Shown one piece after another: positions 21,124 to 48,425 of a stretch of DNA of 64,000 nt (positions are counted from its first letter, which is position 1; the number at the start of each line of letters is the position of its first letter). Source of the stretch: Antedon mediterranea (taxonomy: Eukaryota; Animalia; Echinodermata). The DNA is taken from contig NC_092678.1 of assembly GCF_964355755.1 (NCBI RefSeq), positions 14,010,352 through 14,074,351 on the forward strand. The letters are read 5' to 3'. A model generated the notes under the pieces. That model was not told the origin of the DNA. It worked only from the letters and a program-made list of their open reading frames with translations, and made no database searches. A program made the translations under genes and the position numbers.

Positions 21124-21357
21124 AACTTAAATTTTCACCAAGTGTCAATACAAAATGACTTTTGGTTTATAATCTATGACCAATCATTGAAATTCATAAA
21201 ATTGCGCGTAACTTACACTGCACGACTCTAACGTCATTAAAAATATGGAGGTGCACAACTTCAGGTAAATGTCCATATAATGACAAGTTTATACAAAAGA
21301 TATATTCACAAGCAATAGGGGAATGCTGCTCACAAAAATCCGGGAAAGAAAGAAGAA

Positions 21358-22903
21358 CTAGACATGAAACTCGTCACTGTGACGAGTTAGTTATCCGCAC
21401 CACGACAAACGCCACGTGCACGTCATACGTTGGAATATTGCACACAGATAAAGATTATGGCATTATGACAAGAACTGAAGAATATGATATGCTGTTAGTG
21501 CTGAATTCTGTCAATTTTGTGTCATATAGTATATACAGTGCAAACAGTATCTGTATACATATTACATACAGTGTAAAATAGGTGAAATTACGGGACCCGC
21601 CATTTATTCCAATTTTTAACATGGCGACGGTATCAAAATGAAACACTTAGATAGCAATTTCAGAAGGAAATTATCTCAGGAACAACATATTAACGTGTGA
21701 AAGAAATTTGAATACGTAAAATATAGATGCGCACCCTTTTAAATGTTATGAACTATCACGCAAAATATGAAAATACGACTTTTTTTATTCAACTGGCAAT
21801 ATGATGACTTCACAACATCTGATTGGCAAAATGTTTACATGAATTCGTATCTACAATCCAATAGCGTCCAGAAAACGTTTTAATCATGATTATCACTTTT
21901 TATTCTGACGAGCTATAACAGATTGAACTTTACTGTAAAAATGAAAATAAGTGACCCACGTTGTTTACATTTTTAGACATGATGACGTCATAAAAATTAA
22001 AATATTTTTAACTCTTACGGAAGATAGTTGATTAACGTAGACAATATTAAAATCTCGGGGGAAATGGAATACGTATAAGCGCGATGCGCTCTGTTGAATA
22101 TGATGAGCAATAACGAAACAGACAAAAATCCTATATTTTACATTCGTGTGGCCATACGATGACGTCATAACATCCGAGAGGTAAAAATTCTGCATGAATT
22201 CATATCTACAATTTATCATCTTACACAATAAGTTAAAAAAATTGGGGTAAACCTTTGATCCCGAAGAGCTATAATAGATTCAAAATTGGCATTATTTTGA
22301 CAATATTTTATAACTTTTTTAACTAAAACGCGCACAAATGGTCTAAATCAACATGTTCGTATGACGTCATTTTAATTTGAAATGATGTTAATCTTTTTTA
22401 AACTGACTAGGAAAGGCTGTAAAATCATAATTCAAGAAAAAAACACATGATTTTCATGCTCCATGCGCAGCTTACGCGTAAAATGTTTCGTGCGCGTGGG
22501 AATGATCAGCGTAGAAAGTTGATTAGAAATTATTTTTGCGCATTTTGAAATTTTAAATGCGCGTAAGCGCGTAACTCCTTGTGAAGCATGCCATTTTTAA
22601 TCCATTGAAAGTTTGCCCTTAATATGACTTAAATTTTCACTAAGTGTCAATACAAAATAACTTTTGGTTTATAATCTATGATCAATCATTGAAATTCATA
22701 AAAACACGCGTAATTCATGTTGCGCAACTCTGACGTCATTCAAAAATAGGAGGTGCACAAGTTCACGTAAATGTCGATATGTTGACAAAGTTACGATATG
22801 TTCTGTTTACACGTTTTAGAGAAACGTGACGCACAAAAATGACAGAAGGAAAGAAGTATAATACAGAAAAAAAAAAAATATGATGAAACAGGACGATTAC
22901 AAG
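21358..22903 (+). mobile_element. HINE family 2 copy, split by the 16.3-kb insertion; its terminal hairpin lies at 39199-39228
   Basis: Starts CTAGACATGAAACTCGTCACTGTGACGAGTTAGTTATCCGC; acaggacgattacaag|...|caaggagttatccgc matches the unsplit acaggacgattacaaggagttattcgc at 15931. Confidence 0.8.
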
Positions 22904-24370
22904 TAGCCTGGGTGCAGTACAAATTTTGCGGGAAAAAATTATAGGACAAATTTTTTCTTTTTTTTCTGATAGAGTATACCATATAGAATGTCAGAAAAAA
23001 AATTCCCATCCCAGGGTCTTGGGGAAAATTTTTTACGGCACTTTTAAATTTTGGCCTATATACACACACAAATGCCTATTAACAACTACTAGGCCTAGGC
23101 TAGCTAGTATACTGGACATCATCGCTGATTTAATCATTATTATTACCCAGTCCACCCCATCCAGATATCCATCCTACCTAGGCTAGCCTATGTTAAGTTT
23201 TACAATTTTACATTAATATTATCAAAATTATAACTTTTCTATATCAATGTAAACACATTACCAGCAACAACACAGTGGATTATACAAAACATAACTCACT
23301 AAGTCCATAGGCATACTACATGCAACACTTTATATATTGACTGTATGTACAGGTATTCCAAAAGCAGTAACAATAAAATACATTTTGGGGGACAGGCCTA
23401 CCTGGCTGCGATTTTGTTTTTCGTACATAAGTTGGGGACCCCTCATGAAACGTCACAAAATAAACATGAATAATTCATCAGTTAATAAAATGTTCTTGTT
23501 CCGTTTGCACCCGAAGCATATAGCAACAAGAAGTGATTACACAAGTGCGCGCGCGGTACGATTCTAGGCCTATCTCCGCTGTGGTTGCGGCGTGCGATTT
23601 CATAAAAGAATAACGGCGTTTTGTGTGGATTGTCAAAATAATCAGCCTTTAGTTTATGGTGTTTTTAATATAATTTATTACTAAAGAATTACGTGTTAAA
23701 AAATGATAGTTTCTATTAATACTACATGTATTAGGCCTAATGTTAGTCTCTAAACCCATGTCTATTCAAGTAGTAGCTGTGTGTGTGTGTGTTAGGTATG
23801 ACACAGTCCGAGTAATACTAATATAAGTCAGCAAAATTAAACAATAAACATTACACAAAAATACATTTTTTATTCTCGTGGGTCTAATCTTTCCCATCTC
23901 ATGTGTTCATATACGCGCATTTTTCTTTGAGTACATATTGTTTGATAATAAAATAGCAGAATTACGATTAGCCTTAAAATCGCTACCTGGCTAGCAACTT
24001 GCAATACATGCAATTTAGGCCTACCTAGCCTAGACGTGACCTATGCATAAGTAATTAGAAAAGTAATAGAAGAAGATGAAGCAGAAAAACAATTTTTTTT
24101 CTTACTTACATCATCCAAATGTCTCGTGAGTTTTTATTGTAAAACTCCCGGTGATAATCAGACATTGATAACCTATGTTGAGCAGCCGAAAACGTACCGT
24201 ACAATATGGACATTGCATTGGTCGTCGAGAGCACAAACACTACGAGTGTCATCAAATCCATTTCTCTTGCATAGTGATTGTAAACGGAGAGTCGTACTAT
24301 AATACATTATACTTGTATGATGTCACCTACCCATGATGATGTCAGCTATATTTAGTACACGTAAGATGCT

Positions 24371-25035
24371 AAAATAATGGCGGTGCAATATTATTATACC
24401 TACGGTTGCAATCTGGATGCGTTATGAAATACGTCAGATACCCACCGTTTGTTGTAGATGACGTCGATATAAAGACTAATATTCACCCTAGATGCTATGT
24501 TTAATACACACACATACACACACACACATAAAATAATGATGGTGCAATATTATACCCACGCTTGCAATCTGGATGCGTTATGAAATACGTCAGATACCCA
24601 CCGTTTGTTGTAGATGACGTCGATATAAAGACTAATATTCACCCTAGATGCTATGTTTAATACACACACACACACACACACATAAAATAATGATGGTGCT
24701 ATATATTATACCCACGCTTGCAATCTGGATGCGTTATGAAATACGTCAGATACCCACCGTTTGTTGTAGATGACGTCGATATAAAGACTAATACTGTATT
24801 CACCCTAGATGCTATGTTTAATACACACACACATAAATAATGATCGTGCTATATTATACCCACGCTTGCAATCTGGATGCGTTATGAAATACGTCAGATA
24901 CCCACCGTTTGTTGTAGATGACGTCGATATAAAGACTAATATTCACCCTAGATGCTATGTTTAATACACACACATAAAATAATGATGGTGCAATATTATA
25001 CCCACCGCGTTTGTTGTGGATTATAATAAAGACTA
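24371..25035. repeat. Tandem array, ~150-160-bp unit, 4 copies plus a partial, each with a variable (CA)n tract
   Basis: ttgcaatctggatgcgttatgaaatacgtcagatacccaccgtttgttgtagatgacgtcgatataaagactaata recurs at ~24406, 24562, 24718 and 24866. Confidence 0.95.
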
Positions 25036-25337
25036 AATAATAGAGTTTAAAATACATTATAATCCGCCAAGAAACAAACAAAACCTACTATAATAATATC
25101 GAAACGTATTCGATAACAGATGCATTACTAGTTCACATGCATACAAAATCGAATCAGGCACGCAAAAGCTCGTATACCTTTCAGATACTTTACCTATATA
25201 CGCTTTAGCGAATTATTCGTTTCGCTAAGAATGCATAAAATGGAACTTGACGTTTCCAAAACATCTCAGTCGAATGTCAGATTTTGCCGAAAAGACATCT
25301 AAAAAATAAATAAATAAAAAAATTAAAAAGAATTAAA

Positions 25338-26666
25338 ATGGCAGGAAGAAGAAAAAGAAGGAAACGAGCGAAACGATGTCAAAAACGAACGAACGACCGT
25401 TGTAATTTGTGCAACCTGCCGACCGAATTGCTGCTGTACATTTTCTCCTTCATGGATTACGTGTCTCAGTTAGAGTTGGCCAACTCAAGTCCCTACATGA
25501 CCGGATTGTTGGGCGATTTGGAATTGATCGCAACCGAGGCGGCCGTACAACTGTGCAAACGTAAACGTCACGGTACGGTTGACACGTTTCAAAGCTGCCG
25601 ACCATCCGCCGGAAGCCTGTTGATGTGCGTGAAGCGAAAGTTTAAGCCGGTTCTCGATTCGCAATCGACTTTGCCGCAATTCTACATGTCTAACCTAGTG
25701 CTGAAGAATGTGCATTTTAGAGAGGGAACACTGCATCGCATCTTGGAAGAAACGGTGGTCTGCTTGGAGTATTTGGAATTGGACTCGTGCACCGGTGTTG
25801 TTTTCCACCCGGCTGCCAATCAACTAATCCCGTCGGACAAAATAGGACATTCATCGATACATTGCAAAAACATGAAAGTGCACTTGGACGACGTTCGCCA
25901 AACCCTGGTTCCCGATGGATTTTCTAGCAAATATACCTACTACGTGGTACTGACCGACTGCGACATGACGGAGACGGATCAAAATCTGAACTACAGGCTG
26001 TTGATCGTGTACGACGGCCGCTCCAACGGGGCAGATGTTGGACGTTACTTTAACCTAATCACAGTCTCGTCCGTGTGGAAAGAAACCGAAGTGTTGAAGG
26101 TTCGTCCTTACACACGAAACGAAGAAGACACAGTGTGGATGCCGATGGTCAATCGGACCAGTTTAAATGCGGCCATCGACCATTTCGCCGAATCTTCAAA
26201 AGAAACCTCTCTAGAACTTTCGTTGGACGGCTACACGGATGACCGAGTCGACATGTCAGTCGGCTTGCGATTGATGAGCTGGGACTCTTTGACCACCTTG
26301 TTTCTGCTAAATTCAATAGTGGACGAAGGTTTTCTTTCTGTTGTCATGTCGGAACATCCGAACCTGAACACGATAACGATAAAGAATTGCGAAGGTGATC
26401 CGTTCGGTGAGATGGAAACGAGCCCCAACACCGCACTGAGGCATTTGAACCTGATCGAAATGAATATCGACGAGGCAGGCATGGCTGAATTCATGACACC
26501 AATCATCAACGTCGTCAAGTTAACTTTACATAATATGTGTTTCTTCGACGAACGTCTTTTCGCTAAACGATTGTACGAGACATCCGGCTATCGTTGGCTC
26601 GATTGTGAGTATGTCCGCGAGCCAGGCGTATTGGTTCCCATTGAGATGTTTCTTGAAACGGGTTGA
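25338..26666 (+). CDS. Intronless F-box protein with a basic N-terminal NLS and LRR-like C-terminal region (442 aa)
   Basis: RRKRRKRAKR, then F-box LCNLPTELLLYIFSFMDYVSQLELA; LxxLxL units (LEYLELDSC, LTTLFLLNS, LNTITIKNC, LRHLNLIEM); AAAATGG start context; AATAAA at ~26740. Confidence 0.8.
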   Translation: MAGRRKRRKRAKRCQKRTNDRCNLCNLPTELLLYIFSFMDYVSQLELANSSPYMTGLLGDLELIATEAAVQLCKRKRHGTVDTFQSCRPSAGSLLMCVKRKFKPVLDSQSTLPQFYMSNLVLKNVHFREGTLHRILEETVVCLEYLELDSCTGVVFHPAANQLIPSDKIGHSSIHCKNMKVHLDDVRQTLVPDGFSSKYTYYVVLTDCDMTETDQNLNYRLLIVYDGRSNGADVGRYFNLITVSSVWKETEVLKVRPYTRNEEDTVWMPMVNRTSLNAAIDHFAESSKETSLELSLDGYTDDRVDMSVGLRLMSWDSLTTLFLLNSIVDEGFLSVVMSEHPNLNTITIKNCEGDPFGEMETSPNTALRHLNLIEMNIDEAGMAEFMTPIINVVKLTLHNMCFFDERLFAKRLYETSGYRWLDCEYVREPGVLVPIEMFLETG

Positions 26667-26813
26667 AGAAATCGATTTTTTTATATAACAAGTATACATA
26701 ACATGTGTTTATAATAATAACAAAACAAAAATGTTCTGTAATAAAAATGATATTTATTCGAGAAAAAGAATTATTAAAAGAAAAAGCAAATGCATTCTAT
26801 ATTTTTTTTTTTT

Positions 26814-27548
26814 TCAATCATGATGAATTTGAAATATTACAAATGTCTTCATTACATCGTCTTTGTCAGCTTCTTCTTCACTCTTCTTTAGACGGAATCT
26901 TTCGGAAATGCGAATGTCGTCCGGAATATCAGATGTAGTGAATTTAGAATATTCTTGTATGAGCTCCGGTGTCATGTGGGGATGTAATTTCTTCATGATA
27001 AATTTATATTCCTTTTGCATAGCCATCTGCGTGCCTGCTATAAACGACTTTGGAAGAGGAGAGAGTCCCTGTGGAACGTAAATGTTCTCTACTACATCAT
27101 GATAGAAAGTTGTCAAGACTTCCCTCTTTCCTGTCTTTGTAAAATCGTAAAACTGTACAATTACGCCTTTGATGTATTGCAACCGAATTCCTTGCAGATA
27201 CTCGTCCAATTCCTCAATGAAATACGTAGGCCTACGTCGACCAGTGTATGCGAATTCTATATTCGCTCCCTGGAGTAGATATGCGATCATCATTTTCAAT
27301 ATCGGTTTTCCTAACAAGTCCGTGTGTGCTATCGTTGGATGAAAGTCCATACTTTTCGAAATCCGGACATCCGCTTCCCCCGGAATGTACCATTGATGGT
27401 CATAATAAATTTCGTGAGTGGTATGGTCTGTGTAAACGTCTCGATGTACATCGTAGCCTTTGATCAACAGAATTCGTTTAAATCTCCCTTCAAAGTATTC
27501 TGTTCTTTGAATTCTCAGCTTTTCAGTTACTGATCTTCGCAGCATCAT
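26814..27548 (-). CDS. Intronless orphan protein (244 aa)
   Basis: Uninterrupted ATG-initiated ORF convergent with the F-box gene; TATAAAA upstream on the minus strand near 27595; no family recognised. Confidence 0.65.
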   Translation of the reverse strand: MMLRRSVTEKLRIQRTEYFEGRFKRILLIKGYDVHRDVYTDHTTHEIYYDHQWYIPGEADVRISKSMDFHPTIAHTDLLGKPILKMMIAYLLQGANIEFAYTGRRRPTYFIEELDEYLQGIRLQYIKGVIVQFYDFTKTGKREVLTTFYHDVVENIYVPQGLSPLPKSFIAGTQMAMQKEYKFIMKKLHPHMTPELIQEYSKFTTSDIPDDIRISERFRLKKSEEEADKDDVMKTFVIFQIHHD

Positions 27549-29608
27549 TTCCCGTTTTGTTGTGCTTTTTTTTCTGTTAAAATTTCTCTTTTTATATCTA
27601 CCATTTCCCTCGCCCCCCCCCCCCCCATAATAGCCTAATGTATGTGTGAGTGTGAGTGTCCAAAGACGCGCGGCGACGTTTAGTTTGCATCCTATTTTAC
27701 AAAAGAGATATGTGTCGTGTCACCACAAAAGGAGCTTTGGGTTGAAATTATTTTTTTTTTTTTAAATTATTATTATAATATTAATCTCCATTCTTTAAGC
27801 TTTCTAAAAAAAATAATGTAACTTGCTTTATAATTTATTTCAAGGCAATTAAGATATGACCCTATTTCAACCAAGAACTTCCGAATTCAATAGATTACTT
27901 CCGAATTCAATAGATTATCAACAATTAGAAAACAGCCTTTTAAGTTCAGTGGACCATTACATTGGTTTTATTCAATAACCACAACACATTCGCCTTGGAT
28001 ACCATTAGTTATTATTACTGAATCTACATGAAATTTTAAACACTTAAACAATGAATACGAGTATAGATTACACTTTAATTTCTTTCAATTTTATTATCAT
28101 CTTCATATATAAAATACAACAATTAAAAATTACATAATTATGTTGATTAATGGATTATTTTGAGCACACACAATCTGTTAACATAACTCACTTCTACTCT
28201 AGATCATGATTAGGCCTATACAAATTCTTACACATTCTTCTTCGTTTTCAATAACTATCCTCGCCGTCAGAATCTTCGTCGTCTATCCCCATCATCCAGG
28301 CTTTAGCATTAGCAAGAAGGCTAGCATTTAAAGCGTCAGCTATGACTTTTTCCGATCGTTCATTATCAGAATTAGACATTTCTATTAATTATATCAAACT
28401 ATTAATTTGAATGATGCAAAAGAATTATAGTATAGTTTATTAAAAGATTGTAAATTATAACACTAAAGTAGGACAATAATGTAGTAGCACACTGTAAACC
28501 TCGTGCGAACAGCTTACCAAGGTAGTAAACAATACGTCTACGCACGTTCACAAGTGATTGACCAATCAGAGGACGCGATTAGTCCCTTTTGTTTGGCTGT
28601 ATTTAAGGCCGAAGCCTTTATAAAAGTGATTGTGATTGGACTATGATTGCATATTTAAATGTTTATTCATGATATTCTGAAAGATGACGTTACAAGCTTT
28701 AAAACCATACCAGTTGTGACAATGTTTGGAAAGGCGGGAACATTCGATTGAAAAATAAGGTAGATGATTTTTGGCCGGCCGTTTACGGCTGAAATAGTCA
28801 GAATTCCACACAAAACCTTACAATATTGTCTATAAAAAAACGTCAAAATGTATGTATTTTGGAACAAAATTAAGTTTTAAGGACAAGTAAACTATAATAG
28901 TTGAATATGTCGAATATGTAAGAAAAAAAAAATTATTTTAAATTGACTATTCCAACATTCAAAGCTAATTATAGCAATATTATAGCTTTTGCGACACAAG
29001 GCCGGCGGCTCCTTTCGTTGTGACGCGACCCATATAGACGCGCGCGGGGGGGGGGGGGGAGATGTGGAGAACGCATTAGTAATGCTTAACATCAGTTTCT
29101 ATAAGAGCGAGATGAGAGAGAGAGATAGAGAGAGAGAAAAACAAAAACAAAAAAATGTGCTGTATCAAATTTATTTTCTTTTATTAATCCATAAGAAAGT
29201 GACAACATTAAAATAAAAGTGAATTACATACAAAAAGTTTTGCATTTATTTATTTGGAATTACACCTTTAGATCGGTAGCACACTTAGCACAAAGGTGCA
29301 TCCTTCACAATATAAAATATAACAATTAACAGAAAAGTAAAAAAAGGCAAAAGCAACTATCCTACCCCCCCCCCCCCCCCTCAATTTACATCGATACATA
29401 CAGTAGATCATTACTTTACACAAATGAATACAAAACAAGATATAGTAAAAGTGTACAAAATAAAATCAACTGATAAACACAGCTTATTACGTAAAAACCC
29501 CAACCTCTCCTCCCCCCCCCCCTTTTTTTTTTTCAATTTACTTAATGTAGCAATGTAGATAACATAGTTGCATTGCAGTTAAAGTTTGGTGCTGTATATA
29601 TACAATTT

Positions 29609-30124
29609 TTAAATGTCGCATACGCACAAGATTTCTATCGACATCGGCTCATATACTGCCGCGTCTACATTACATCGTTGAAAGCACTCATCCGATACGG
29701 GAATAGTTTCTGGATAACCAAACAGAGCGGGAACGCACCTTCCCACGTTTTCACCTAATGGAAAAAAGCAATGAGAACCAAACAGATCGCATCCATCATT
29801 GTCCGGTACGAGAAGCCATTGATCATCAGCCGATCGGTTTAGGCTACACGTTTCTAAAGAATATTTCATACCGTCCCATCGATCGCATTCATCACAACAC
29901 GTAACAATATGAGTACCGTCTTCGATGATGTCAATGCACGCATATTTTTCGCTCTCTCTAATGCATGCGTCGTGATATAGAAACGGCGATACTCCGTCAA
30001 CGTACACCGATCCAATTAACAAGTCCGGACGTTCATCGATGCACATTACACAACGATGGTGGTAAAGTAGTAGTAGTAATATGAGTAGTAGTAGTAAAAT
30101 GTGTTTCAACGCCTCTGTATCCAT
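29609..30124 (-). CDS. Cys-rich secreted or membrane-anchored protein (171 aa)
   Basis: N-terminal hydrophobic run ILLLLLILLLLLY followed by a cysteine-dense domain; the start overlaps the upstream ORF by 19 nt. Confidence 0.7.
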   Translation of the reverse strand: MDTEALKHILLLLLILLLLLYHHRCVMCIDERPDLLIGSVYVDGVSPFLYHDACIRESEKYACIDIIEDGTHIVTCCDECDRWDGMKYSLETCSLNRSADDQWLLVPDNDGCDLFGSHCFFPLGENVGRCVPALFGYPETIPVSDECFQRCNVDAAVYEPMSIEILCVCDI

Positions 30125-30396
30125 GCGTCACAATTGGTTCTGATGTAAAGCGATACCAACGAAAACAAAGGCCAATGTCTTGTCTCATTATGTTCTGTAA
30201 CGGGCATGCAAACGTGATGAAAATGTTTTGAGAATCCACTTCGTATAGACGCTGATATGACGTGTGACGGAGGACGAGGTCCGGCGTTTTCAAATTTTAC
30301 GAACCTGTTCAATTTGGTTGGAGCCATAGAATGCCAAGACCTTGTTGCCGGGTTGTAACCGCCAATCATGCGTGGTATTCCGTCTAATACGTCGTA
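30106..30396 (-). CDS. Probable -1-frame C-terminal continuation of the kelch-like protein
   Basis: The track ORF 30106-30441 starts at GTG, not ATG; it contains kelch-like IGGYNPATRSWHSMAP and joins the upstream ORF at a T7 run (30396-30402). Confidence 0.55.
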   Translation of the reverse strand, partial: YDVLDGIPRMIGGYNPATRSWHSMAPTKLNRFVKFENAGPRPPSHVISASIRSGFSKHFHHVCMPVTEHNETRHWPLFSLVSLYIRTNCDAWIQRR

Positions 30397-32258
30397 AAAA
30401 AAGGAAACTTTACGGTTGATCTGACTTTTTGCCTGAACCACGGGCCGTGTTTTTCATTACGTTTGAAAACATGTTCATTGTTGACAACAAAAATGTGTCC
30501 ACTGTCGTGTATAAGCGACGTGTTTTTGTCCAAGTGTCGAATGTATGATTTGGCAAAATTATCAACGAAACGAGACGGAAGTATTCTGTTCGGAATGTCA
30601 ACGTCGGCCATCAATTGGCTCGAGATTATTGAAAGCTTAGAAACAACCGTTTTAGGCTCAGCTCTAGTGCACATGACGTTGCCGATAGTGAACAGTTCGA
30701 TTTCACCGTTTGACTCGTTTCCTTTGCACCATTTACTCGAGTAATAACGATACGTCGTATTGAAAGCAAACCACTCTTTTCGTATCGTGTCATACACGAA
30801 TCCATATTTTTCAGTATCGCATCTACTCGTGTCGGTTCCTAGAAAGTCTAACATGTCAGTCGGTGCGCCGGTTTCGAATCTACCACCAACAAACACTAGC
30901 AATCTATCCAGAAAACAAAACATTTGCATTCCACAACGATGCCGGCAAACGACAGGCATTTCGCCAATTTTAGTCCATTCTGCTATACCGCCCTTGTTCA
31001 GGGTTTCTCTGGTGCACTCGTACACTTGAAAATCTGTTTCAAAGACGGCGTACAGTGTGTTCTTGTTACTCGTGCAACTTAAAACGCCCTTTATTGTTAC
31101 GTCATGAAACAATGGTCGAATGACAAGTATGGTTGTACCTGTGAACGCGTGATTCATGTACACGTCACCGGAAGAAAGAACGGTAAAAACAGATGCGTTC
31201 GGTGTGTCCTGACAGGCAAGTTGACGTTCCGGTGGTCGAGCAGACATTTTCAAGAGCGTCTTGATTCTGTCGGTGGTTCGTAAATCATCGACGACGACGT
31301 TGTTGTTGTGTTCGTTCATTCTATACGGCGAGAATACGGACGAGTCGAGAAGAATGCCCATGCTTGTCGCGTTGATCTTGTTGTCGGGCAATGATGCAAC
31401 CCATACGGTCACTAACCGATTCACGTCTGCATTGTAACCGCTTTTGCGAGCGTTTCGACTCAGTAATTTGTCAAAGAAACATGGCGGAATCTGAGACATC
31501 CACATGGAAATCAAATCTGGTTTCTTAACAAACAAATCGTGAATGAGCGGTGCCCAGAAAATCAACGAATCGGCAATGACACTCGATATTGCGTATGCTT
31601 TTTCCCGTTGGATTGTCGCGTGAATCAATTGGAGTACAACTGCAGTTCTAATCGGATCAAAAAACATTACTGTCGCTTCTTTCGAAATTGTTTCAATTGT
31701 ATCCGTTGAGATTTTTGGGAATACAATGCCTGTGTTTATGAGCATTTGCTTGATTTTATCCAGAGCAATTGTATTGTTCAAGTACACAGACAGTTTTGTA
31801 AACGAAACGATGTTTTCAATTGTAAACGGTTCATTTCTTTTGGTAAAGTTGTTTACGGCGTTTGCGTCCAACCATTTCGGTACTTTATACCAAATGTTGC
31901 CGCTTACTTTATCTTTTACAAAATGAAGATTTCTTATCTTATTTTTTGAGTCGTCGTGTTGTACTCTGTACGACGAATCGGTATCACGTTCCAAAAACCC
32001 GTCGTCGTATACATCACCTGTATGCTGCTGCTGCTCCGGTTGAACTTCAGTCTCCGAATCAATTTCGGGCACGTTATTCGGCGGCCGTTGAAATATTTCA
32101 TAATTTAAAGGTGTTACGGTAGCAGATTTTGCTAACGTTGAAGGTCCATCATCATCATCATCTTCATCATCAGATGATATCCACACAGTATCAAGTTTTC
32201 TTACTTTCTTACTGTCTTCGTGACGTTCATTAGAACCGTGCCTGCGTCTGGACGCCAT
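30384..32258 (-). CDS. Kelch-like beta-propeller protein with a basic/acidic N-terminus (624 aa from first ATG; ~717 aa if frameshift-extended)
   Basis: WTKIGEMPVVCRHRCGM..LLVFVGG and YDTIRKEW resemble kelch blades; first ATG (MASRRRH) at 32258; intronless and CpG-rich. Confidence 0.7.
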   Translation of the reverse strand: MASRRRHGSNERHEDSKKVRKLDTVWISSDDEDDDDDGPSTLAKSATVTPLNYEIFQRPPNNVPEIDSETEVQPEQQQHTGDVYDDGFLERDTDSSYRVQHDDSKNKIRNLHFVKDKVSGNIWYKVPKWLDANAVNNFTKRNEPFTIENIVSFTKLSVYLNNTIALDKIKQMLINTGIVFPKISTDTIETISKEATVMFFDPIRTAVVLQLIHATIQREKAYAISSVIADSLIFWAPLIHDLFVKKPDLISMWMSQIPPCFFDKLLSRNARKSGYNADVNRLVTVWVASLPDNKINATSMGILLDSSVFSPYRMNEHNNNVVVDDLRTTDRIKTLLKMSARPPERQLACQDTPNASVFTVLSSGDVYMNHAFTGTTILVIRPLFHDVTIKGVLSCTSNKNTLYAVFETDFQVYECTRETLNKGGIAEWTKIGEMPVVCRHRCGMQMFCFLDRLLVFVGGRFETGAPTDMLDFLGTDTSRCDTEKYGFVYDTIRKEWFAFNTTYRYYSSKWCKGNESNGEIELFTIGNVMCTRAEPKTVVSKLSIISSQLMADVDIPNRILPSRFVDNFAKSYIRHLDKNTSLIHDSGHIFVVNNEHVFKRNEKHGPWFRQKVRSTVKFPFFTTY

Positions 32259-32311
32259 CGCAATACTACAGCAACACGCACGCACACACACAATATGATC
32301 GCTAATATTAC

Positions 32312-32644
32312 TCACTTCAATAACTGCTTAAGAAATGTGGTTAACGTTTCAGAATATTCCTCCTTGTTTTTACTGGAACTAGCAAATTCACGTGCAACGT
32401 GAAGTGTGACAATAATGCGGCCCTCATTCACGTGGCCGTCTTCAAACATGCCCACGAGCAGATCGTGTAATGACTTGGCGCTGCGACATTTCACCTTATC
32501 AACTTGATTCTTGATTTCAGTTTTCAATTCTGCGTTGCTAAATGTTTCCGGATATTCACGTTCAACTTTTTCCTCGTTTTCCAAATAATTTTTGGCCAAA
32601 ACGATCAATTTATCAACATCAAAACCACCGTTTCTCTTTAACAT
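32312..32644 (-). CDS. Truncated Bcl-2-like protein (110 aa from first ATG)
   Basis: MFEDGHVNEGRIIVTLHVA matches the BH1 pattern (LFxDG.NWGRIVxL) with W to E; BH3-like EKVEREYPETFSN upstream; no BH2 or transmembrane tail; TATAAA just upstream. Confidence 0.65.
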   Translation of the reverse strand: MLKRNGGFDVDKLIVLAKNYLENEEKVEREYPETFSNAELKTEIKNQVDKVKCRSAKSLHDLLVGMFEDGHVNEGRIIVTLHVAREFASSSKNKEEYSETLTTFLKQLLK

Positions 32645-32822
32645 CTTGTTCAACAATATTTCTTTTTTTGAAGTGACTTTCTCGTTTATACGCACATCAA
32701 TTTATAGTACCGGAATGATTCTCTGTCAACAATCCCGTTTGTACGGTTCCGGTCTAGGATTTGCGTTTGTGATGACCGCTATGTTATGTAAATGAGCCTG
32801 TGCAGCTGGTGTATTAATAATT

Positions 32823-32865
<43 letters not shown>

Positions 32866-32890
32866 ACACACACGTTTCATAAGTTTGGTT

Positions 32891-33515
32891 ATGGATTCAG
32901 AACAGGGCTTAATTGGAGACCAGGGGTATGCTACGTCTAAAGCCAAAAACTTGGACATTAACCAGGTATCTGATGGTTTTGATGCCAAGTTGAACAATTT
33001 TAAAAGGCATGTTGCCGAGGAGTCATATTCAGCATTGAAACGTGCTCGGTCAGCGCATTTCAACGATGAATTAAAGATAGTGTATGAAAACAACGATCAG
33101 AGTGAAACGCTCACCGAAGGTATTATGATTCTTGAGAAATGACAAAAATTAAAAAATTTAAAAAAATAAATAAATAAATAAATAATTTATAATAGCTTAT
33201 TTTTTTTATTATTTTTTGTGTGTTTCAGATGAAGACTTTGGACCACTCACAGATCTGCGTATTTCCGAGTTGGCAAGAGAGCTGGGCAATGATTGGTCAA
33301 TGATAGCAACATATTTAGGAATTTCACTCGCTCAACAACAAGATTTACGTCAGGCTCATTACATTTGTAGTCGGGAACGTAATCAAGAAATGCTTGTTAT
33401 ATGGCGCAAGAGAGATTCATGCTGCCAAAAATCAGACAAACTACAATCATTAATGAATGCATTGGAAAAAAGTGGAAGAATCGACTTAAAAAACAAAATC
33501 AGTCTATGGCAATGA
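32891..33515 (+). CDS. Death-domain protein, two exons (32891-33119 and 33229-33515), 171 aa
   Basis: LTDLRISELARELGNDWSMIATYLGIS..QEMLVIWRKR..LMNALEKSGRIDL is a death-domain pattern; GAAG|GTATTA donor and pyrimidine-rich TTTCAG|AT acceptor give a phase-matched 109-bp AT-rich intron. Confidence 0.78.
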
Positions 33516-33846
33516 AAGTCAAAACTATAGCATTCGTATTTATAAAAGGTGTACGGTAGAGTACGTTTCTTCAATAATGAATCATAGCATTCGATCTATA
33601 TTAGTTTTGTTTTGAAAAGAGTTTATTAAAAAAAGAAAACACCTTTAACCGAGAACACCGTGTACTGTTATTGTAAAAAAATTTCGTTTCTAAAAGTTCA
33701 CGTTCACAACAAGAAGGATAGCGCGCAAGCAACTTGGCCATCTAGAATTCGTTCGATAATGTTTTAGAAAAAAATAAAAGCTTTACTTCGACGCCTAATG
33801 ACAGCGTGCGTCAATGTTTTAAAAAAGAGAGAACATACTTCCCCCT

Positions 33847-36800
33847 TATATACAATAACGTTTATAACTTTCCAGATCATACTTCTTTTTCTATTCGATT
33901 ACAGTTTCTAATGATAGCATACTTCAGGAATGATCCTGATTGTTCTTATATTAATTATTATACATGGTTTCTTAAATCCAAACACACTCTTATTCTAGAA
34001 AGTTCATGTAGATACATACACCGTCTCTTTACCGAATGAACTGATAAGGTCGTGCAATCAATAAGAGGCATAACATGCCGTGCATTCGTCGTGCGTTGTA
34101 TATCGAGAGAACAAATGAAAATATTGTTTACTTCGAGAATAAGCAATACACCGTCTCTTTACCGAATGAGCTGATAAGGTCGTGCAATCAGTAACAGGCA
34201 TAACATGCCGTGCATTCGTCGTGTGTTGTATATCGAGAGAACAAATGAAAATATTGTTTACTTCGAGAATAAGCAATACACCGTCTCTTTACCGAATGAG
34301 CTGATAAGGCCGCGCAATCAGTAACAGGCATAACATGCCGTGCATTCATCGCGTGTTGTATAATTATTATACATGGTTTCTTAAATCCAAACACACTCTT
34401 ATTCTAGAATGTTCATGTAGATACATACACCGTCTCTTTACCGAACTAACTGATAAGGTCGTGCAATCAATAAGAGGCATAACATGCCGTGCATTTGTCG
34501 TGGGTTGTATATCGAGAGAACGGATGAAAATCTTTTTTTTTTTTTTTTTACTTCTAGAAGAAGCAATACACCGTCTCCTTACCAATCGAGCTGATAAGGA
34601 AGGCCGCGCAATCAGTAACATGCATAACATGCCGTGCATTCATCGCGTGTTGTATAATTATTATACATGGTTTCTTAAATCCAAACACACTCTTATTCTA
34701 GAATGTTCATGTAGATACATACACCGTCTCTTTACCGAATGAACTGATAAGGTCGTGCAATCAATAAGAGGCATAACATGCCGTGCATTCGTCGCCTGTT
34801 GTATATCGAGAGAACAAATGAAAATATTGTTTACTTCGAGAATAAGCAATACACCGTCTCTTTACCGAATGAGCTGATAAGGCCGTGCAATCAGTAACAG
34901 GCATAACATGCCGTGCATTCATCGCGTGTTGTATAATTATTATACATGGTTTCTTAAATCCAAACACACTCTTATTCTAGAATGTTCATGTAGATACATA
35001 CACCGTCTCTTTACCGAATGAACTGATAAGGTCGTGTAATAAATAAGAGGCATAACATGCCGTGCATTTGTCGTGGGTTGTATATCGAGAGAACGGATGA
35101 AAATCTTTTTTTTTTTTTTTACTTCGAGAAGAAGCAATACACCGTCTCCTTACCAATGGAGCTGATAAGGAAGGCCGCGCAATCAGTAACATGCATAACA
35201 TGCCGTGCATTCATCGCGTGTTGTATAATTATTAGACATGGTTTCTTAAATCCAAACACACTCTTATTCTAGAATGTTCATGTAGATACATACACCGTCT
35301 CTTTACCGAATGAACTGATAAGGTCGTGCAATCAATAAGAGGCATAACATGCCGTGCATTCGTCGCCTGTTGTATATATACAATAATGTTTATAACTTTC
35401 CAGATCATACTTCTTATTCTATTCGATTACAGTTTCTAATGATAGCATACTTCAGGAATGGTCCTGATTGTTCTTATATTAATTATTATAGGCCTACATG
35501 GTTTCTTAAATCCAAACGCACTCTTATTCTAGAATGTTCATGTAGATACATACACCGTCTCTTTACCGATCGAGTTGGATACGGTCGTGCAATCAATAAG
35601 AGGCATAACATGCCGTGCATTCATCGCGTGTTGTATACCGAGAGAACAAATGAAAATATTGTTTACTTCGAGAATAAGCAATACACCGTCTCTTTACCGA
35701 TCGAGTTGATAAGGCCGTGCAATCAGTAACAGGCATAACATGCCGTGCATTCATCGCGTGTTGTATAATTATTATACATGGTTTCTTAAATCCAAACACA
35801 CTCTTATTCTATAATGTTCATGTAGATACATACACCGTCTCTTTACCGAACTAACTGATAAGGTCGTGCAATCAATAAGAGGCATAACATGCCGTGCATA
35901 CGTCGTGTGTTGTATATCGAGAGAACGGATGAAAATATTTTTTTTTTTTTTTTTTTTACTTCGAGAAGAAGCAATACACCGTCTCCTTACCAATGGAGCT
36001 GATAAGGAAGGCCGCGCAATCAGTAACATGCATAACATGCCGTGCATTCATCGCGTGTTGTATAATTATTATACATGGTTTCTTAAATCCAAACACACTC
36101 TTATTCTAGAATGTTCATGTAGATACATACACCGTCTCTTTACCAATCGAGTTGATACGGTTGTGCAATCAATAAGAGGATAACATGTCGTGCATTCGTC
36201 GCCTGTTGTATATATACAATAATGTTTATAACTTTCCAGATCATACTTCTTATTCTATTCGATTACAGTTTCTAATGATAGCATACTTCAGGAATGGTCC
36301 TGATTGTTCTTATATTAATTATTATAGGCCTACATGGTTTCTTAAATCCAAACACACTCTTAGTCTAGAATGTTCATGTAGATACATACACCGTCTCTTT
36401 ACCGATCGAGTTGATACGGTCGTGCAATCAATAAGAGGCATAACATGCCGTGCATTCGTCGCCTGTTGTATATCGAGAGAACAAATGAAAATATTGTTTA
36501 CTTCGAGAATAAGCAATACACCGTCTCTTTACCGAATGAGCTGATAAGGCCGTGCAATCAGTAACAGGCATAACATGCCGTGCATTCATCGCGTGTTGTA
36601 TAATTATTATACATGGTTTCTTAAATCCAAACACACTCTTATTCTAGAATGTTCATGTAGATACATACACCGTCTCTTTACCGAATGAACTGATAAGGTC
36701 GTGTAATCAATAAGAGGCATAACATGCCGTGCATACGTCGTGTGTTGTATATCGAGAGAACGGATGAAAATCTTTTTTTTTTTTTTTTACTTCGAGAAGA

Positions 36801-38057
36801 AGCAATACACCGTCTCTTTACTAATGGAGCTGATAAGGAAGGCCGCGCAATCAGTAACATGCATAACATGCCGTGCATTCATCGCGTGTTGTATAATTAT
36901 TATACATGGTTTCTTAAATCCAAACACACTCTTATTCTAGAATGTTCATGTAGATACATACACCGTCTCTTTACCGATCGAGTTGATACGGTTGTGCAAT
37001 CAATAAGAGGCATAACATGCCGTGCATTCGTCGCCTGTTGTATATATACAATAATGTTTATAACTTTCCAGATCATACTTCTTATTCTATTCGATTACAG
37101 TTTCTAATGATAGCATACTTCAGGAATGGTCCTGATTGTTCTTATATTAATTATTATAGGCCTACATGGTTTCTTAAATCCAAACACACTCTTATTCTAG
37201 AATGTTCATGTAGATACATACACCGTCTCTTTACCGAATGAACTGATAAGGTCGTGCAATCAATAAGAGGCATAACATGCCGTGCATTCGTCGCCTGTTG
37301 TATATCGAGAGAACAAATGAAAATATTGTTTACTTCGAGAATAAGCAATACACCGTCTCTTTACCGAATGAGCTGATAAGGCCGTGCAATCAGTAACAGG
37401 CATAACATGCCGTGCATTCATCGCGTGTTGTATAATTATTATACATGGTTTCTTAAATCCAAACACACTCTTATTCTATAATGTTCATGTAGATACATAC
37501 ACCGTCTCTTTACCGAACTAACTGATAAGGTCGTGCAATCAATAAGAGGCATAACATGCCGTGCATACGTCGTGTGTTGTATATCGAGAGAACGGATGAA
37601 AATCTTTTTTTTTTTTTTTTTACTTCGAGAAGAAGCAATACACCGTCTCCTTACCAATGGAGCTGATAAGGAAGGCCGCGCAATCAGTAACATGCATAAC
37701 ATGCCGTGCATTCATCGCGTGTTGTATAATTATTATACATGGTTTCTTAAATCCAAACACACTCTTATTCTAGAATGTTCATGTAGATACATACACCGTC
37801 TCTTTACCGATCGAGTTGATACGGTTGTGCAATCAATAAGAGGCATAACATGCCGTGCATTCGTCGCCTGTTGTATATATACAATAATGTTTATAACTTT
37901 CCAGATCATACTTCTTATTCTATTCGATTACAGTTTCTAATGATAGCATATTTCAGGAATGGTCCTGATTGTTCTTATATTAATTATTATAGGCCTACAT
38001 GGTTTCTTAAATCCAAACAAACTCTTATTCTAGAATGTTCATGTAGATACATACACC
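33847..38057. repeat. Complex tandem array: ~25 copies of a ~75-bp core with 3-4 alternating linker types, forming an ~834-bp higher-order repeat
   Basis: Core atacaccgtctctttaccgaatgaactgataaggtcgtgcaatcaataagaggcataacatgccgtgcattc; the long linker recurs at 35381, 36217, 37049 and 37882. Confidence 0.95.
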
Positions 38058-39028
38058 ACACAAATACCTATATATAGGGGATAGGGAAAACCAATTCACG
38101 TTTTTTTTTTACTTGGAGTTGTGTTATGATGATTAAAATTTGCTGAGGCTTACTTTAATAACTACTTCTCATAGTAGTTGATAAATCGAGTCGATAACAA
38201 TGACATCATCATGCCAGAATCCAATATGGCGTCCAATTTGGCGGAAAAAACAGGGTATTGCTAACCCCGCAAACCCTTGCAAACCTACTTGTAAAAAAAA
38301 ACATAGCAAACCCCACCGAACCAACACAAAAGTGTAGTGATTGAATCATGTAGTGTACGACCCACTGGGTATATCCATGTAAAAAAAAAAATTAAATTTC
38401 TACGGTTAACTACTTATTTTTGGGGTAAAACCTCATTTTTTGGTCAAAAATGATTGCTAAACCCTGCAAACCTCCAAAAAAACATAGCAATCCCCACCGA
38501 AACAACATAATAAAAGTGATTGAATCATGTAGTGTACGACCCACTGGGTATATCCATGTTTAAAAAAAATAAAATTTCTACTGTTAACTACTTATTTTTG
38601 GGGTAAAACATCATTTTTTTTGTAAAAAATGATTGTTAATTTTTAACCAAAAAATGATGTTTTATCCCAAAAATAAGTAGTTAATTCAGTAGAAATTTTA
38701 ATTTTTTTTTACATGGACATACCCAGTGGGACGAACACTCCATGATTCAATCACTTTTATGTCGGTTCGGTGCGGTTTTCTATGGTTTTTTTTAGGTTTT
38801 CAGGGGTTTGCGGGGGTTTAGCAATACCCTGTTTTTCCCGCCAAATTGGACGCCATATTGGATTCTGGCATGATGATGTCATCGTATCAACTTGATTCAT
38901 CAACTACTATGAGAAGTAGTTATTAAAGTAAGCCTCTACTAATTTTAATCATTAAAACACAACTGCAAGTAACAAAAACTGTTAATTGATTTCCCTATCC
39001 CGTGTATGTTAATAGGAATTTGTGTGTG
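38057..39028. repeat. ~970-bp foldback (imperfect palindrome) forming the inner body of the TIR element
   Basis: gggatagggaaa..ctttaataactacttctcatagtagttgat..atgccagaatccaatatggcgtccaatttggcgg is mirrored at 38640-39001; the left arm has an internal ~180-bp duplication. Confidence 0.9.
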
Positions 39029-39198
39029 TTCTATAGGCCAAAATTTAAAAGTGCCATGAAAAATTTTCCCCAAGACCCTGGGATGGGGATTTTTTTTCTG
39101 ACATTCCATATGGTATACTTTATAAGAAAAACCAAAAAAACATTTTCCTATACTTTTTTCCCGCAAATGTGTATAATAATTGTTCTGCACCCAGGCTA

Positions 39199-39733
39199 CA
39201 AGGAGTTATCCGCTACTAAGCGGATAACAAATAAAGATGAAAAAAAAAGATATTTACAATCACAAGGGTTATCCGCAACTTAATAAGTTGCGGATAACCA
39301 ATTAATAAGTTGCGGATAACCAAAAAAAGATATTTACAATAACATGGGTTATCCGCAACTACTAAGTTGCGGACAACCAATGAAAAAAAAGATATTTACA
39401 ATAACAAGGGTTGTCCACAACTACTAAGTTGCGGATAGCCAACTAGATTTGAACTCGTCAAAATGACCTTTGGTTTATAATCTATGACCAATCATTGAAA
39501 TTCATAAAATTGCGAGTAACTTACGCTGCGCGACTCTAACGTCATTAAAAATATGGAGGTGCACAACTTCAGGTAAATGTCCATATAATGACAAAGTTAT
39601 ACAAAAGATATATTCACAAGCAATAGGGGATATGCTGTAGACAAAAATCCGGGAAAGAAAGAAGAATAACAAAGAAGATGAAAAAGATATTTACAATCAC
39701 AAGGGTTATCCTGCAACTAAGTTGCGGATAACC
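39199..39733 (+). repeat. Stack of HINE terminal hairpins plus an internally deleted HINE (39443-39733)
   Basis: Repeated aaaagatatttacaat(c/a)aca(a/t)gggttatccgcaact..agttgcggataacc units; CTAGATTTGAACTCGTCA at 39443 is fused directly to the distal block. Confidence 0.8.
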
Positions 39734-41118
39734 AAAAAAAAAAAAGATCCGGACAATAACCAATTAATCAAAACATATCCCAAAGGCCTCTATAATTCTT
39801 AAAAACGAAGTACTGTAGGAAAAGTTGGTAATATCTGGATGTATTTTAAGAGTTGAAGATGATCTTTGACTGACTAAACAATAGACTGTTTATAATACCA
39901 GGTTTGCATGTTCATAGTAGGAAACTGCTAGGAGGCAATAGAGAGTGAACATTAAATTAAGATAAAAGATATCTTTCTGTAGTCAACACCTTTCAGTACA
40001 TCTATGAATGAATAAGTAGTTGAGAGCAGGAATGCTAGTAAACTAAACCCAGTACCATTTTGATTTGACAAGAAATTATCTCTCTCTCTTTTGAAAATGT
40101 CTTCAACACATTCAGGTATTCTGTAGGAGTATAGTATCTTGGTGTGTAAAAGTTTATTAATAATTGTCTTTGTTACATGTTTAGAAGAGAATTTATATCT
40201 GATCGTAGTTGTACTACACTGTTTGGTAAGCCGTGTGTTGTTATTCAAATGAGTTTTTGTTTGTTAATTTTTTGTTAATTTTGTATATTAGAAGTTGCCT
40301 AGTATTGTATTAACTTTTTCCTGCCATACAACTTTATGCTGTACTGTTGGTTACACCGGTAGGGAGATATCTGGTTCATGCCAGATATTTTATTGTAATA
40401 TGTTATGCATTAATATTAATCGCTCTTGATCTTGGAACTTTAAATATTGTGTGGTCGCCACTCGAGGCTGGATGGAATTTTTTTAGAGATTTTTCCCCGA
40501 TTCGGTTATCAGGGGTTTTATTCATTGCCTATCGCAAGGTTAAGAGTGTTTTAGTAGAACATTACAGGTTAGCATCTGTTTGCCTTCAGTTCATTTAATT
40601 GAAAACAGAACAGAAAAGTAAAAAACACACGACTATTTAATTTTCGTCATTTTATCTAGAAACGAATATTGCATTTATTTTGTTTGTTTGTTATTTATAC
40701 GGGGTTATGGAAGTTGGCGTGTGTGACCGCACTTTCCCAGAATAAACATGTTTTAAACAGATATTTTGTCTCCATTGGTTCATGTATGGGGTTAACAGTG
40801 GCTGAGATGAGATCCAAATTTAACTGTGCTGTGGGCATTAGGTTAGATCGATCACACTCCCACACCTCAAAAGACAAGGCCTGCTATTGGTTAATAAAGG
40901 ATTTAAAGCAACTTACTGAGATCTAAATGTTGAACTTTTGGGCGATCTGAGTATGGATCATTTTTGTACAATGTATCCAGTATCTTCTCCTTTACTTGAC
41001 TGATGGTGTCACAGCTAAGAACTTTCACTTTTTGAAATGCACCACTGTCAGAATGTTGTATTGCATTCAGTGTCTGTAAAATAAAAATAAAATTTATTTC
41101 TAGAATATTAAGTTGTAA

Positions 41119-42659
41119 CTAGAATTTAATTCGTCACTTTGACGAATTATAGGTGATCATTTTTATCATTTTATTGACATTCATATTTTTTAAACATGCA
41201 CGTATGTTAACATACAATCGGAAAATGTTGATGTATGCCATCCTATTATACGCTATAGTGCTGAGTTGTGCCTATCATATGCCATATATACATTATGTAC
41301 AGTATATACTGTATATCTATATACAGTGTAGCATTAGTGAAATTAGGGACACACATCGTGTTCTAATTTTTTGGCACTGATGACATTATCAAAATAAACT
41401 TGTGGATAACAATATCGAAAGATAAAGAATTGAGCAATAAAATATAACAATTGGAAGAAAATTTGGCACGTAGAAGCGCGGTGCACGCTCTTTAAAATTT
41501 GTATAACTTTGACGAAAGAGATGAAAAATTTGCTTTTTAACTTCAACTTGCCATATTATAACGTCACAAGATTCCATAGGCTTAATTTTTATATAAATTC
41601 ATATCTACATTTAACCAGCTCTAATAATAAGTTATAAACATCAAGGTCAACTTTAATTCAGAAGAGCTGTAAGTTATTCAAATGTACCTTATAGGTGAAT
41701 TTACGTAACCACAGTTATTCAAATTTTAAGACGTGATGACGTCATCAAAATGAAAATGTTGGCAACTCATGAGTAACATAATTGGTTGAGGTAGAATATA
41801 TTAAAATTATAAAAGAAAATCAATTACAGATAAGCGAGTTGCGCTCTGTTGAATATGGTAGTCTATAACAAAAGGGGAAAAAACCCTGTTTTAAAAATAC
41901 ATGTGGCCCAAATGATGACATCATTCCATTTTGTACGTCTAATGTGTATATACATTTATATCTACAACTCATTGGCTTCCATAATAAGTTAAAAAAATTG
42001 GGGGTCACCTTCCATTCTGAACAGTTATATTCATTTTAAAAAGGCCTTATTTTTTACAATTTTTAGCACTTTTGTATAATTAATGTGCGCATTTTGTCAT
42101 TTTTAACGTGCTCGTATAGCACTATTTTAAGTCGAAATGGACTCAAATTTGTTGAATGTACTATGGAAGTTGAGTAGAATGCAATTTGTACCAAAAAAAT
42201 GATATTTTTTACGCTTTCTATGTACGCACGCGCAAAAACGTGTTTTTGCGCAGTAATTTTTTAAAACATGCAAATGGCCTGCTCTAAATTGATCAAAACG
42301 TAATTTTGAGCTTTTTAAATTTTTAACGCGCTCACGCGCATGACCCTGCGTGCTCGTGCGTTTTTATTTGCTAATATTTTTACCCTTGACCTGATGTTTA
42401 CGTGTAGTGAATTCATTAATATGTGATAATTAATTATGGAGATATGATTGATATTGCAATTTCACAAAATGGCATATAAATGACGTCACGGGTGAGGGAT
42501 CACGCTGAAAAGCTTATTAGGACTAAGTTAAAGTATTTGAAAGACATTCTGAAATTTTGATAATCATTGACATTAAAGTTTTTGAGATATTTGTTACACA
42601 AAATCTGTACAGAAAGAAATTGCAAAGAAACATTTTTTTTTTACAAAAACAATTTCTCA
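41119..42659 (+). mobile_element. HINE family 3 copy lacking its terminal hairpin
   Basis: Starts CTAGAATTTAATTCGTCACTTTGACGAATTATAGGTGATCA; homologous to 42660-44212 and, inverted, to 46673-48195. Confidence 0.8.
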
Positions 42660-44212: not shown

Positions 44213-44661
44213 TTAAAGTAATGAATATAGTACACACACAAGAGAAAGTAAATACAGAGATTAACTCTGACTGTTTACTGTTGTTTTAATAGAAATCCAT
44301 TGTGGCCATGAAATTTCATCTAATAATGAAAATGGAATGCATGTATACAGGGAAATAGTTAATAGAATACATACAATGACTTGAGGACGTTTGTCTGACT
44401 GAAGGCAATCATCAAGGTTCAATGAGTATGTAGCACGTCCAGTAATGGCATCTACTGGACCCATCTCAATCCTTAACTTCAGTGCATGGTACAGAACATA
44501 CAGTGGATGCCCGGCATAGTCCTGTAAAACACAATGTTTAAATGAGCAAATGGCCAAAAAGTTAAGACATTGGAACTGTAATCCATAGCCTTATGCCAAG
44601 GGTTTGAGGCTCACTTGCTCCATGGTTCTGGTGGTAGAACGAGTCTTCTTGGATAGTTAAT

Positions 44662-48195: not shown

Positions 48196-48196
48196 T

Positions 48197-48425
48197 TTTT
48201 TATTCTTTTATTTTATTTCATACACATCCAACAGCGAGTACAAACTCGCCAATTACAGGATGGATGAACTATTTTATCGTGCTTATAAACTAAGTCTGAT
48301 TTGAGTGTTAGAGAGTGGAGTTAAAAGAGTCTTGAGTTACAACCCTGCCACGAGGTCAGGATTGAACCCTGGACCTTGGGATTGGAAGGCAAGCATGTTT
48401 TAACCACCAATCTACAGCTCCACTA
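48197..48425 (-). mobile_element. tRNA-derived SINE
   Basis: Minus strand gagctgTAGATTGGTGGttaaaacatgcttgccttccaatcccaaggtccagGGTTCAATCCtgac gives A and B boxes; A-rich tail near 48200. Confidence 0.6.

Follow-up and report, generated by a model that had tools for sequence, protein, structure and literature searches.

A Bcl-2-like gene and a death-domain gene of Antedon mediterranea are carried within a 16.3-kb element with terminal inverted repeats

In a stretch of 64,000 nucleotides from the Antedon mediterranea genome (the window), a short Bcl-2-like open reading frame (ORF) and a death-domain gene are placed head to head. What kind of unit is this gene pair, and on whose behalf might it act? 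A preliminary description regarded the genes as a co-regulated pair resembling viral decoys of death or immune pathways. The pair is real and is arranged head to head; however, it is not free-standing but belongs to a multi-gene cassette in a 16.3-kb element with terminal inverted repeats (TIRs). Thus, the larger feature is a cargo-carrying transposon with a virus-like host-control cassette. The coordinates of the features are given in Table 1.

The element (22904-39198) is a 16,295-bp insertion with TIRs of approximately 180 bp and a 4-bp target duplication. The core of the inverted-repeat pair (22925-23060 and 39032-39167; 90%) extends outward to positions 22904 and 39198. Both ends of the element read TAGCCTGGG, and CAAG flanks each side. 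When five end positions were tried, the longest exact duplication was 4 bp; TAG ends with 4 bp were the sole perfect parse, and the uninterrupted target copies agree with this parse without any mutation. The flanks of the element are the two halves of a single host repeat, which is present in uninterrupted form in five copies elsewhere in the window (0 in 100 shuffles). Moreover, two contigs from run X11 leave the window sequence at 22903 and then run directly into the right-flank sequence. Therefore, the TIRs and target duplication, the uninterrupted target copies and the X11 contigs together show that the 16,295 bp were inserted as a single unit. We are confident that the Bcl-2-like and death-domain genes are cargo of this element. 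Two other parses, an 8-bp duplication (7 of 8 matching) and a 6-bp duplication with the ends shifted by one base (AG termini, 5 of 6 matching), were rejected in favor of the 4-bp TAG parse, which is perfect and fits the uninterrupted target copies. Five matches to the start of the TIR (L004-L008) were also rejected, being without likeness to the element.

Several other properties of the element were observed. The region just inside the right TIR (38060-39020) is palindromic and MITE-like, with 179-bp internal repeats. Ten of the 14 TAGGCCTA motifs in the window fall inside the element; this motif is frequent in echinoderm-type genomes. In run X5, the summed contig depth was 10,000-26,000 at the TIR (22940-22960) and mostly 180-1,100 across the cargo genes (25250-33800). 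From this contrast, numerous short relatives that share the ends may be suspected, depth not being equal to copy number.

Table 1 Features of the element and its surroundings in the window.
Feature	Position	Strand	Basis
Left target-site duplication (TSD) copy, CAAG	22900..22903	.	End parse; 5 uninterrupted host-repeat copies in window
Left TIR, first letters TAGCCTGGG	22904..23084	+	Inverted-repeat pair, 136 nt core, 90%
Tandem array, ~150-bp units, left end	24370..25005	.	Repeat scan
442-aa protein, N-terminal F-box and LRR-like body	25338..26666	+	Pfam F-box E 8.5e-4, 19.6 bits vs cut-off 20.5
244-aa orphan ORF	26814..27548	-	Related contigs in runs X10, X5
43-aa acidic ORF, coding status uncertain	28248..28379	-	ORF scan
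171-aa cysteine-rich ORF, hydrophobic N-terminus	29609..30124	-	ORF list; no Pfam match
BTB-kelch-like gene, split near 30400	30106..32258	-	Atlas features; homolog P0001 matches both pieces
Possible intron, 50 nt, GTGAGT donor overlapping Bcl-2 stop	32266..32315	-	Splice scan
Bcl-2-like ORF, 110 aa, predicted helical bundle corresponding to Bcl-2 helices 1-6	32312..32644	-	Pfam, PDB, AlphaFold, Foldseek, VIA
Divergent spacer, 246 bp, 2 TATAAA and (CA)n tract	32645..32890	.	Repeat and motif scans
Probable exon 1, death-domain gene, 76 codons + 1 base	32891..33119	+	ATG 32891; X5 paralog alignment
Probable intron, 109 nt, phase-1, long pyrimidine tract	33120..33228	+	GT..AG inspection
Death-domain exon	33229..33515	+	PF00531 E 1.9e-10; best PDB match PIDD death domain E 1.7e-5
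Tandem array, ~130/149/279-bp units, right end	34016..37878	.	Repeat scan
Right TIR	39007..39198	-	Inverted-repeat pair and end parse
Right TSD copy, CAAG	39199..39202	.	End parse
Host plexin exons	40906-41118, 44264-44590, 59397-59627	-	RBD E 2e-16, cytoplasmic domain E 1.2e-10, PSI E 1.3e-6

The host sequence around the element was also inspected. Plexin exons are located to the right of the element; therefore, the host is an animal. Because the last plexin exons were not found in the window, the element is probably inside a long plexin intron. Among the repeats in the flanks, the segment 9651-14232 contains broken ORFs of Helitron-type appearance (helicase-like, OTU-like and endonuclease-like pieces, judged by eye) and a 69-bp tandem array. 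LINE-like remnants (ORF1-like, endonuclease-like and reverse-transcriptase-like pieces, also by eye) lie at 1187-3562 and 17776-20882, and an abundant host repeat forms a large inverted arrangement at 41117-48197 with a perfect 138-nt outer pair.

We examined the Bcl-2-like ORF by several methods. The 110-aa ORF (32312-32644, minus strand) indeed has NEGR at the BH1 position, as the preliminary description had noted, and the reported lack of BH2 and a transmembrane segment was confirmed: the ORF ends after a helix at residues 94-108, and the hydrophobic tail is absent. NEGR itself is not fixed, since residue 74 is A in X5, X10 and the second X1 copy. Pfam PF00452 matched with an E value of 1.7e-4 and 22.5 bits, below the cut-off of 31.4, over profile positions 6-84 of 100; TIGR00865 matched with an E value of 0.0074. 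Mcl-1 accounted for 55 of the 56 PDB sequence matches, all of which were weak (best E 0.06), and NEGR was aligned on NWGR. AlphaFold, run on the single sequence, gave an all-helical model with a pLDDT of 84. When this model was submitted to Foldseek, 43 of the 46 rows shown were from the Bcl-2 family (best E 0.62; TM 0.33-0.56). In VIA-align (48,161 chains), the top eight rows were all Bcl-2 family members with Z values of 5.7-7.0 over 85-101 residues, a range that helical bundles can also reach through their common arrangement. Thus, the domain call agrees with consistent Pfam, Foldseek and VIA matches, although the PF00452 score is below the cut-off and the Foldseek E values are at least 0.62. 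Each line is weak by itself and the lines are consistent together; we consider with moderate confidence that the ORF encodes a cut-down Bcl-2 fold of helices 1-6. Because NWGR, BH2 and the anchor are missing, canonical mitochondrial Bcl-2 action seems unlikely. If the fold is correct, the protein would be a very small natural Bcl-2 fold and would serve as a probe of what this fold can do without BH2 and an anchor.

Relatives of this protein were sought. Word-based searches, which are weak evidence, gave no homologs at near and longer lengths, and Foldseek against viral structures (best E 1.4) indicated no relationship. Three viral loci (L001-L003; 34% over 53 aa) were rejected as chance matches; L001 is without a Pfam match, and the loci show no DNA likeness to the element. 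It had also been considered that the short ORF might be a nonsense-truncated longer Bcl-2 gene. No longer gene was found in the related copies seen, and we rejected this idea: no BH2 sequence follows the ORF, and in the DNA of the present copy the kelch ORF is read in another frame. A BH2-type motif was absent downstream in every frame of the element, the six-frame scan giving two matches, both in unrelated frames. With the indels listed for X5 in the spacer between the Bcl-2-like and kelch ORFs, a second stop would appear within four codons; this count takes in the listed changes. A second Bcl-2-like copy (X1 and X10; from 32629 upward) differs N-terminally, before codon 6; its sequence there is open across the 10 codons shown and contains no Met. 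Therefore, start sites vary among copies.

The death domain was identified with more certainty. It lies at 33231-33512 (plus strand) and matches PF00531 at 41.1 bits, well above the cut-off of 22.6, in line with the death-domain call of the preliminary description. The stretch 33231-33515 has no early Met of its own. From the ATG at 32891, 76 codons stay open up to a GT, and 109 nt further on there is a pyrimidine tract with AG in the right phase. Judging from these signals, the gene probably has two exons, of which the death-domain stretch is the second. The putative donor is a weak one, its score being reached by 13% of GT sites, and the intron joint was not present among the contig joints listed. 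A death-domain paralog contig from X5 aligns from 32888 with a net insertion of +3, which counts toward exon 1. An X10 paralog contig stops about two bases short of 33231, close to where the exon is proposed to start; this was discounted because a masked repeat is located there and the contig comes from one study. The CpG observed/expected ratios of the two exons are 0.93 and 0.76. Among solved structures, the best relatives after PIDD are THOC1 (E 5.9e-5) and RIPK1, RAIDD and FADD (0.03-0.05). Because the best PDB matches are spread over these five proteins, the domain cannot be assigned to a single host adaptor. Exon 1 gave no Pfam or PDB match. Its hydrophobic spacing resembles that of the first two DED helices, and a FADD-like origin is offered as a lead only; a literature search on FADD gene structure returned nothing. 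Like PIDD, FADD and RAIDD, the predicted protein has a death domain and a two-part layout, here with an N-terminal region of DED-like spacing; in contrast to these adaptors, it possesses no intact DED, CARD or LRR.

The preliminary description placed approximately 250 bp, with TATAAA and a (CA)n tract, between the two genes. We obtained 246 bp between the start codons, a value conditional on the ATG at 32891 and the putative 109-nt intron (33120-33228). TATAAA and (CA)n are both present; however, their orientation, chance occurrence and commonness make them weak as evidence for co-regulation. The two TATAAA sites (32685 and 32701) are both on the minus strand and face the Bcl-2-like gene, none faces the death-domain gene, and a spacer of this kind should contain 0.55 by chance alone. 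CA/TG tracts number 15 in the window, including the (CA)n tract (32829-32873), and 12 of them are within the element. Co-regulation of the pair is thus suggested solely by the divergent layout.

The other cargo genes are as follows. The 442-aa F-box protein is likely to be an SCF adaptor. The 244-aa ORF had no match in Pfam, NCBIfam, PHROGs, Atlas or viral contigs. The 43-aa acidic ORF may belong to a small spliced gene: by eye, its upstream region (28500-28630) shows CCAAT boxes, a TATA-like site and a GTAAGC donor. The 171-aa cysteine-rich protein is possibly secreted. The BTB-kelch-like gene consists of a 624-aa ORF (30384-32258, minus strand) and a tail in another frame (30106-30453, minus strand). 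The best 10 of 10 matches of the 624-aa ORF in Atlas features were BTB/kelch proteins (scores 0.89-0.92, 180 features in common). In Pfam, this ORF gave no BTB or kelch match, so that the BTB-kelch label comes from the Atlas features alone. The single-sequence structure model had a pLDDT of 36 and was unusable. Among 1.84 billion representatives, the kelch protein had one homolog (P0001, 788 aa, 36% identical, from a 24,652-bp contig); a word-based homolog search, which is weak evidence, gave none for the 624-aa ORF. The tail is 38% identical to the end of P0001 (E 1e-19). Because P0001 matches both frames, the kelch gene is frameshifted near 30400 in the present copy. The frame break is near a homopolymer run, where an assembly error is possible. 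When viral and metagenome contigs were scanned with the kelch protein, the kelch alignment and the 244-aa ORF, no relative was found.

Are these genes maintained? Eleven runs, from five studies and with four organism labels, hold part of 30300-33600, and the contig comparison took in six of the 11. X5 covers 30 of 30 bins of 22000-34200; one of its contigs spans the kelch start and the Bcl-2-like ORF, and another spans the Bcl-2 start and the spacer. The indels in the Bcl-2-like ORF were +3 (X5) and a 27-letter gap (X10), and four of the six listed substitutions were silent (pN/pS 0.12, p 0.017). A death-domain paralog of approximately 85% identity was found in X1, X5, X9 and X10. Of its listed differences, 13.5 of 30 were silent (pN/pS 0.31, p 0.001), and there was no stop. 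It should be mentioned that these figures are indicative, as they derive from the listed best-supported variants (six for Bcl-2 and, for the death-domain paralog, 30 of 41), and this subset is biased. Within the listed variants, both frames are kept in related copies and silent changes are in excess.

Because the Bcl-2 stop overlaps a donor-like sequence, it is conceivable that the Bcl-2-like ORF is a first exon and that splicing out a 50-nt intron, and the stop with it, makes the ORF continue in frame into the BTB-kelch ORF. By a weight matrix, the donor (GAA, then GTGAGT) scores best within 32258-32720 and is among the highest 0.65% of 7,423 GT sites. The nearest acceptor that could be used keeps the frame, the Bcl-2 stop and the kelch ATG are only 53 nt apart with no AATAAA in between, and both X5 spacer indels fall inside the would-be intron. 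However, the frame agreement is weak, as six of the 11 YAG sites downstream would preserve the frame, and 50 nt is short for an animal intron. In addition, the initial Met of P0001 aligns with the Met of the kelch ORF (14 of 41 residues identical N-terminally) and P0001 has no Bcl-2 part, although its gene caller may miss introns. No contig with the joint was present among the joints listed, and an X10 contig continues 34 nt beyond the donor unspliced, where our view of X10 as RNA is a guess. We therefore regard such a fusion as rather doubtful. If present, it would most likely be an alternative isoform, and it would be compatible with the transposon context. A Bcl-2-headed cullin-3 adaptor of this kind would capture death proteins and ubiquitinate them.

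To which class does the element belong? AcademX elements have 3- or 4-bp target duplications (PMC10045372), and the TIRs and 4-bp duplication of the element agree with this. Repbase practice (PMC4455052) is to classify by the first 11 terminal bases matching a classified element. The element is also longer (16.3 kb) than the mean bivalve Academ consensus of 5.6 kb (PMC10294476). No Academ transposase or nuclease was found among the cargo ORFs and 87 short frames, as expected for a non-autonomous copy. TAG termini are Academ-like, and 4-bp duplications are made by other superfamilies too. Thus, the element appears to work like a non-autonomous Academ-like transposon, a tentative label that derives from the duplication length and the TAG terminus. 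It shares TIRs, the 4-bp duplication and these termini with Academ; in contrast to Academ, it is without a transposase or nuclease and carries host-control cargo.

The element could instead derive from a Polinton/adintovirus, in defective or satellite form, or be a fragment of a large DNA virus, with the cassette as its accessory region. Its length is within the Polinton range of 15-25 kb (PMC6431247), its genes are compact and intron-poor, and CpG is undepleted in five cargo ORFs (observed/expected 1.16-1.60) against 0.87 in the flanks. Bcl2 and IAP homologs are carried by adintoviruses (PMC8502044), so that here too a mobile element of similar size has an anti-apoptotic homolog, and a one-base shift of the ends would give AG termini with a 5/6 duplication. 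However, TAG ends with 4 bp are the only perfect parse and the uninterrupted target copies fit it, whereas the (AGT)2 and (AG)3 end motifs and 6-bp duplication of vertebrate Mavericks (PMC8097293) are absent at the element ends. Transposase, polymerase, integrase, capsid and viral families, including the Polinton/Maverick core genes (protein-primed PolB, integrase and capsid), were not found among the cargo ORFs and the 87 short frames from the non-coding parts, a scan that took in a minor part of the tandem array at 34-38 kb, and no relative was found among viral contigs. The ends and duplication length thus differ from those of adintoviruses, and we consider this origin of the element very unlikely; the cargo itself may come from a virus. 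Another reading, which we judge quite improbable, is that the genes have no role for the element and are neutral passengers, derived from pieces of host genes that were captured in Pack-MULE fashion and are now decaying. The frameshift of the kelch gene, the degenerate BH1, the missing BH2 and the lack of a transposase in the search above agree with it. The excess of silent changes and the frame-keeping indels do not, and the proteins are remote from host-type sequence (one kelch homolog, as stated above, and none for the Bcl-2-like ORF); therefore, long separate evolution fits better than recent capture. Furthermore, Pack-MULEs mostly carry fragments of 1-2 kb (PMC6431247). Selection might also act at the host level, if the cassette consisted of, for example, mobile immune or stress-tolerance genes. 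Purifying selection among the listed variants and the presence of related cargo in runs that bear the labels organism A, B and C would suit this account, but the intact ends, the position inside a host repeat and, probably, a plexin intron, the coexistence of several diverged paralogs in one run and the partly broken state of the present copy leave it only a slight chance of being correct.

We propose that the two genes, as cargo of the element, encode decoys that damp host death or immune signalling for the benefit of the element. We put the chances of this whole account at slightly better than even; the decoy functions are predicted from sequence and fold, and the kelch gene is frameshifted in the present copy. 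A transposase of an autonomous relative, most likely Academ-type, would move the element in trans, and both genes would be driven by the divergent spacer. The death-domain protein, lacking an intact second domain, would act as a competitor in death-domain assemblies. Because PIDD is the best structural match, the DNA-damage PIDD-RAIDD-caspase-2 route would be the first candidate target and FADD/RIPK1 complexes the next, although the lead of PIDD over THOC1 is narrow (E 1.7e-5 vs 5.9e-5). Because the anchor, BH2 and the BH1 tryptophan are missing, the 110-aa Bcl-2-fold protein may be soluble and bind proteins like vaccinia A52 and B14, rather than being a mitochondrial guard. Cullin ligases would be turned toward host targets by the F-box and BTB-kelch proteins, like those under A55 (PMC9502310). 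The net effect would be that cells survive when the family cuts their DNA, with less death or alarm; germ cells are plausible candidates. A stronger form, a transposon family with its own non-viral poxvirus-like kit (a death-domain decoy, a Bcl-2-fold binder, two cullin adaptors and a stop-codon splice switch that places the Bcl-2 domain at the head of a cullin-3 adaptor for destroying the death proteins it captures), is in our opinion unlikely.

The likeness to viral decoys drawn in the preliminary description is reasonable; however, no virus was found, and the cassette is within a cut-and-paste transposon. In the poxvirus set (Bcl-2-fold A52, B14, K7 and N1, and BTB-kelch A55), as presented in PMC5691641 and PMC9502310, a small Bcl-2 fold without canonical motifs stands beside cullin adaptors and a death-fold decoy, as is predicted for the element. 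Here, in contrast, the genes are transposon-borne in an animal chromosome, the best viral fold match has an E value of only 1.4, and one gene probably has an intron. Burro, a group of giant LTR retroelements of planarians, is also a case of transposons with BCL2-like and ubiquitin-related domains, for which interference with host apoptosis and ubiquitination was proposed (PMC6431247). Burro is a retroelement with the domains inside one polyprotein, whereas the present element is a non-autonomous DNA element with separate genes. Like the Pack-MULEs, it is a non-autonomous TIR element that holds gene sequences and would be moved in trans; unlike those short elements with gene fragments, it is 16 kb long and its highly diverged genes are apparently whole and under selection (PMC6431247). 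In the full-text literature, a coverage that leaves out subscription journals and Repbase Reports, no DNA transposon with a comparable cassette was found.

The DNA breaks made by cut-and-paste transposons trigger cell death, and these transposons are usually thought to carry little besides a transposase. If our account is correct, a selected anti-death and ubiquitin cassette would let a 16-kb transposon counter host quality control as large DNA viruses do. The element would also offer a direct test of the idea put forward for Burro (PMC6431247).
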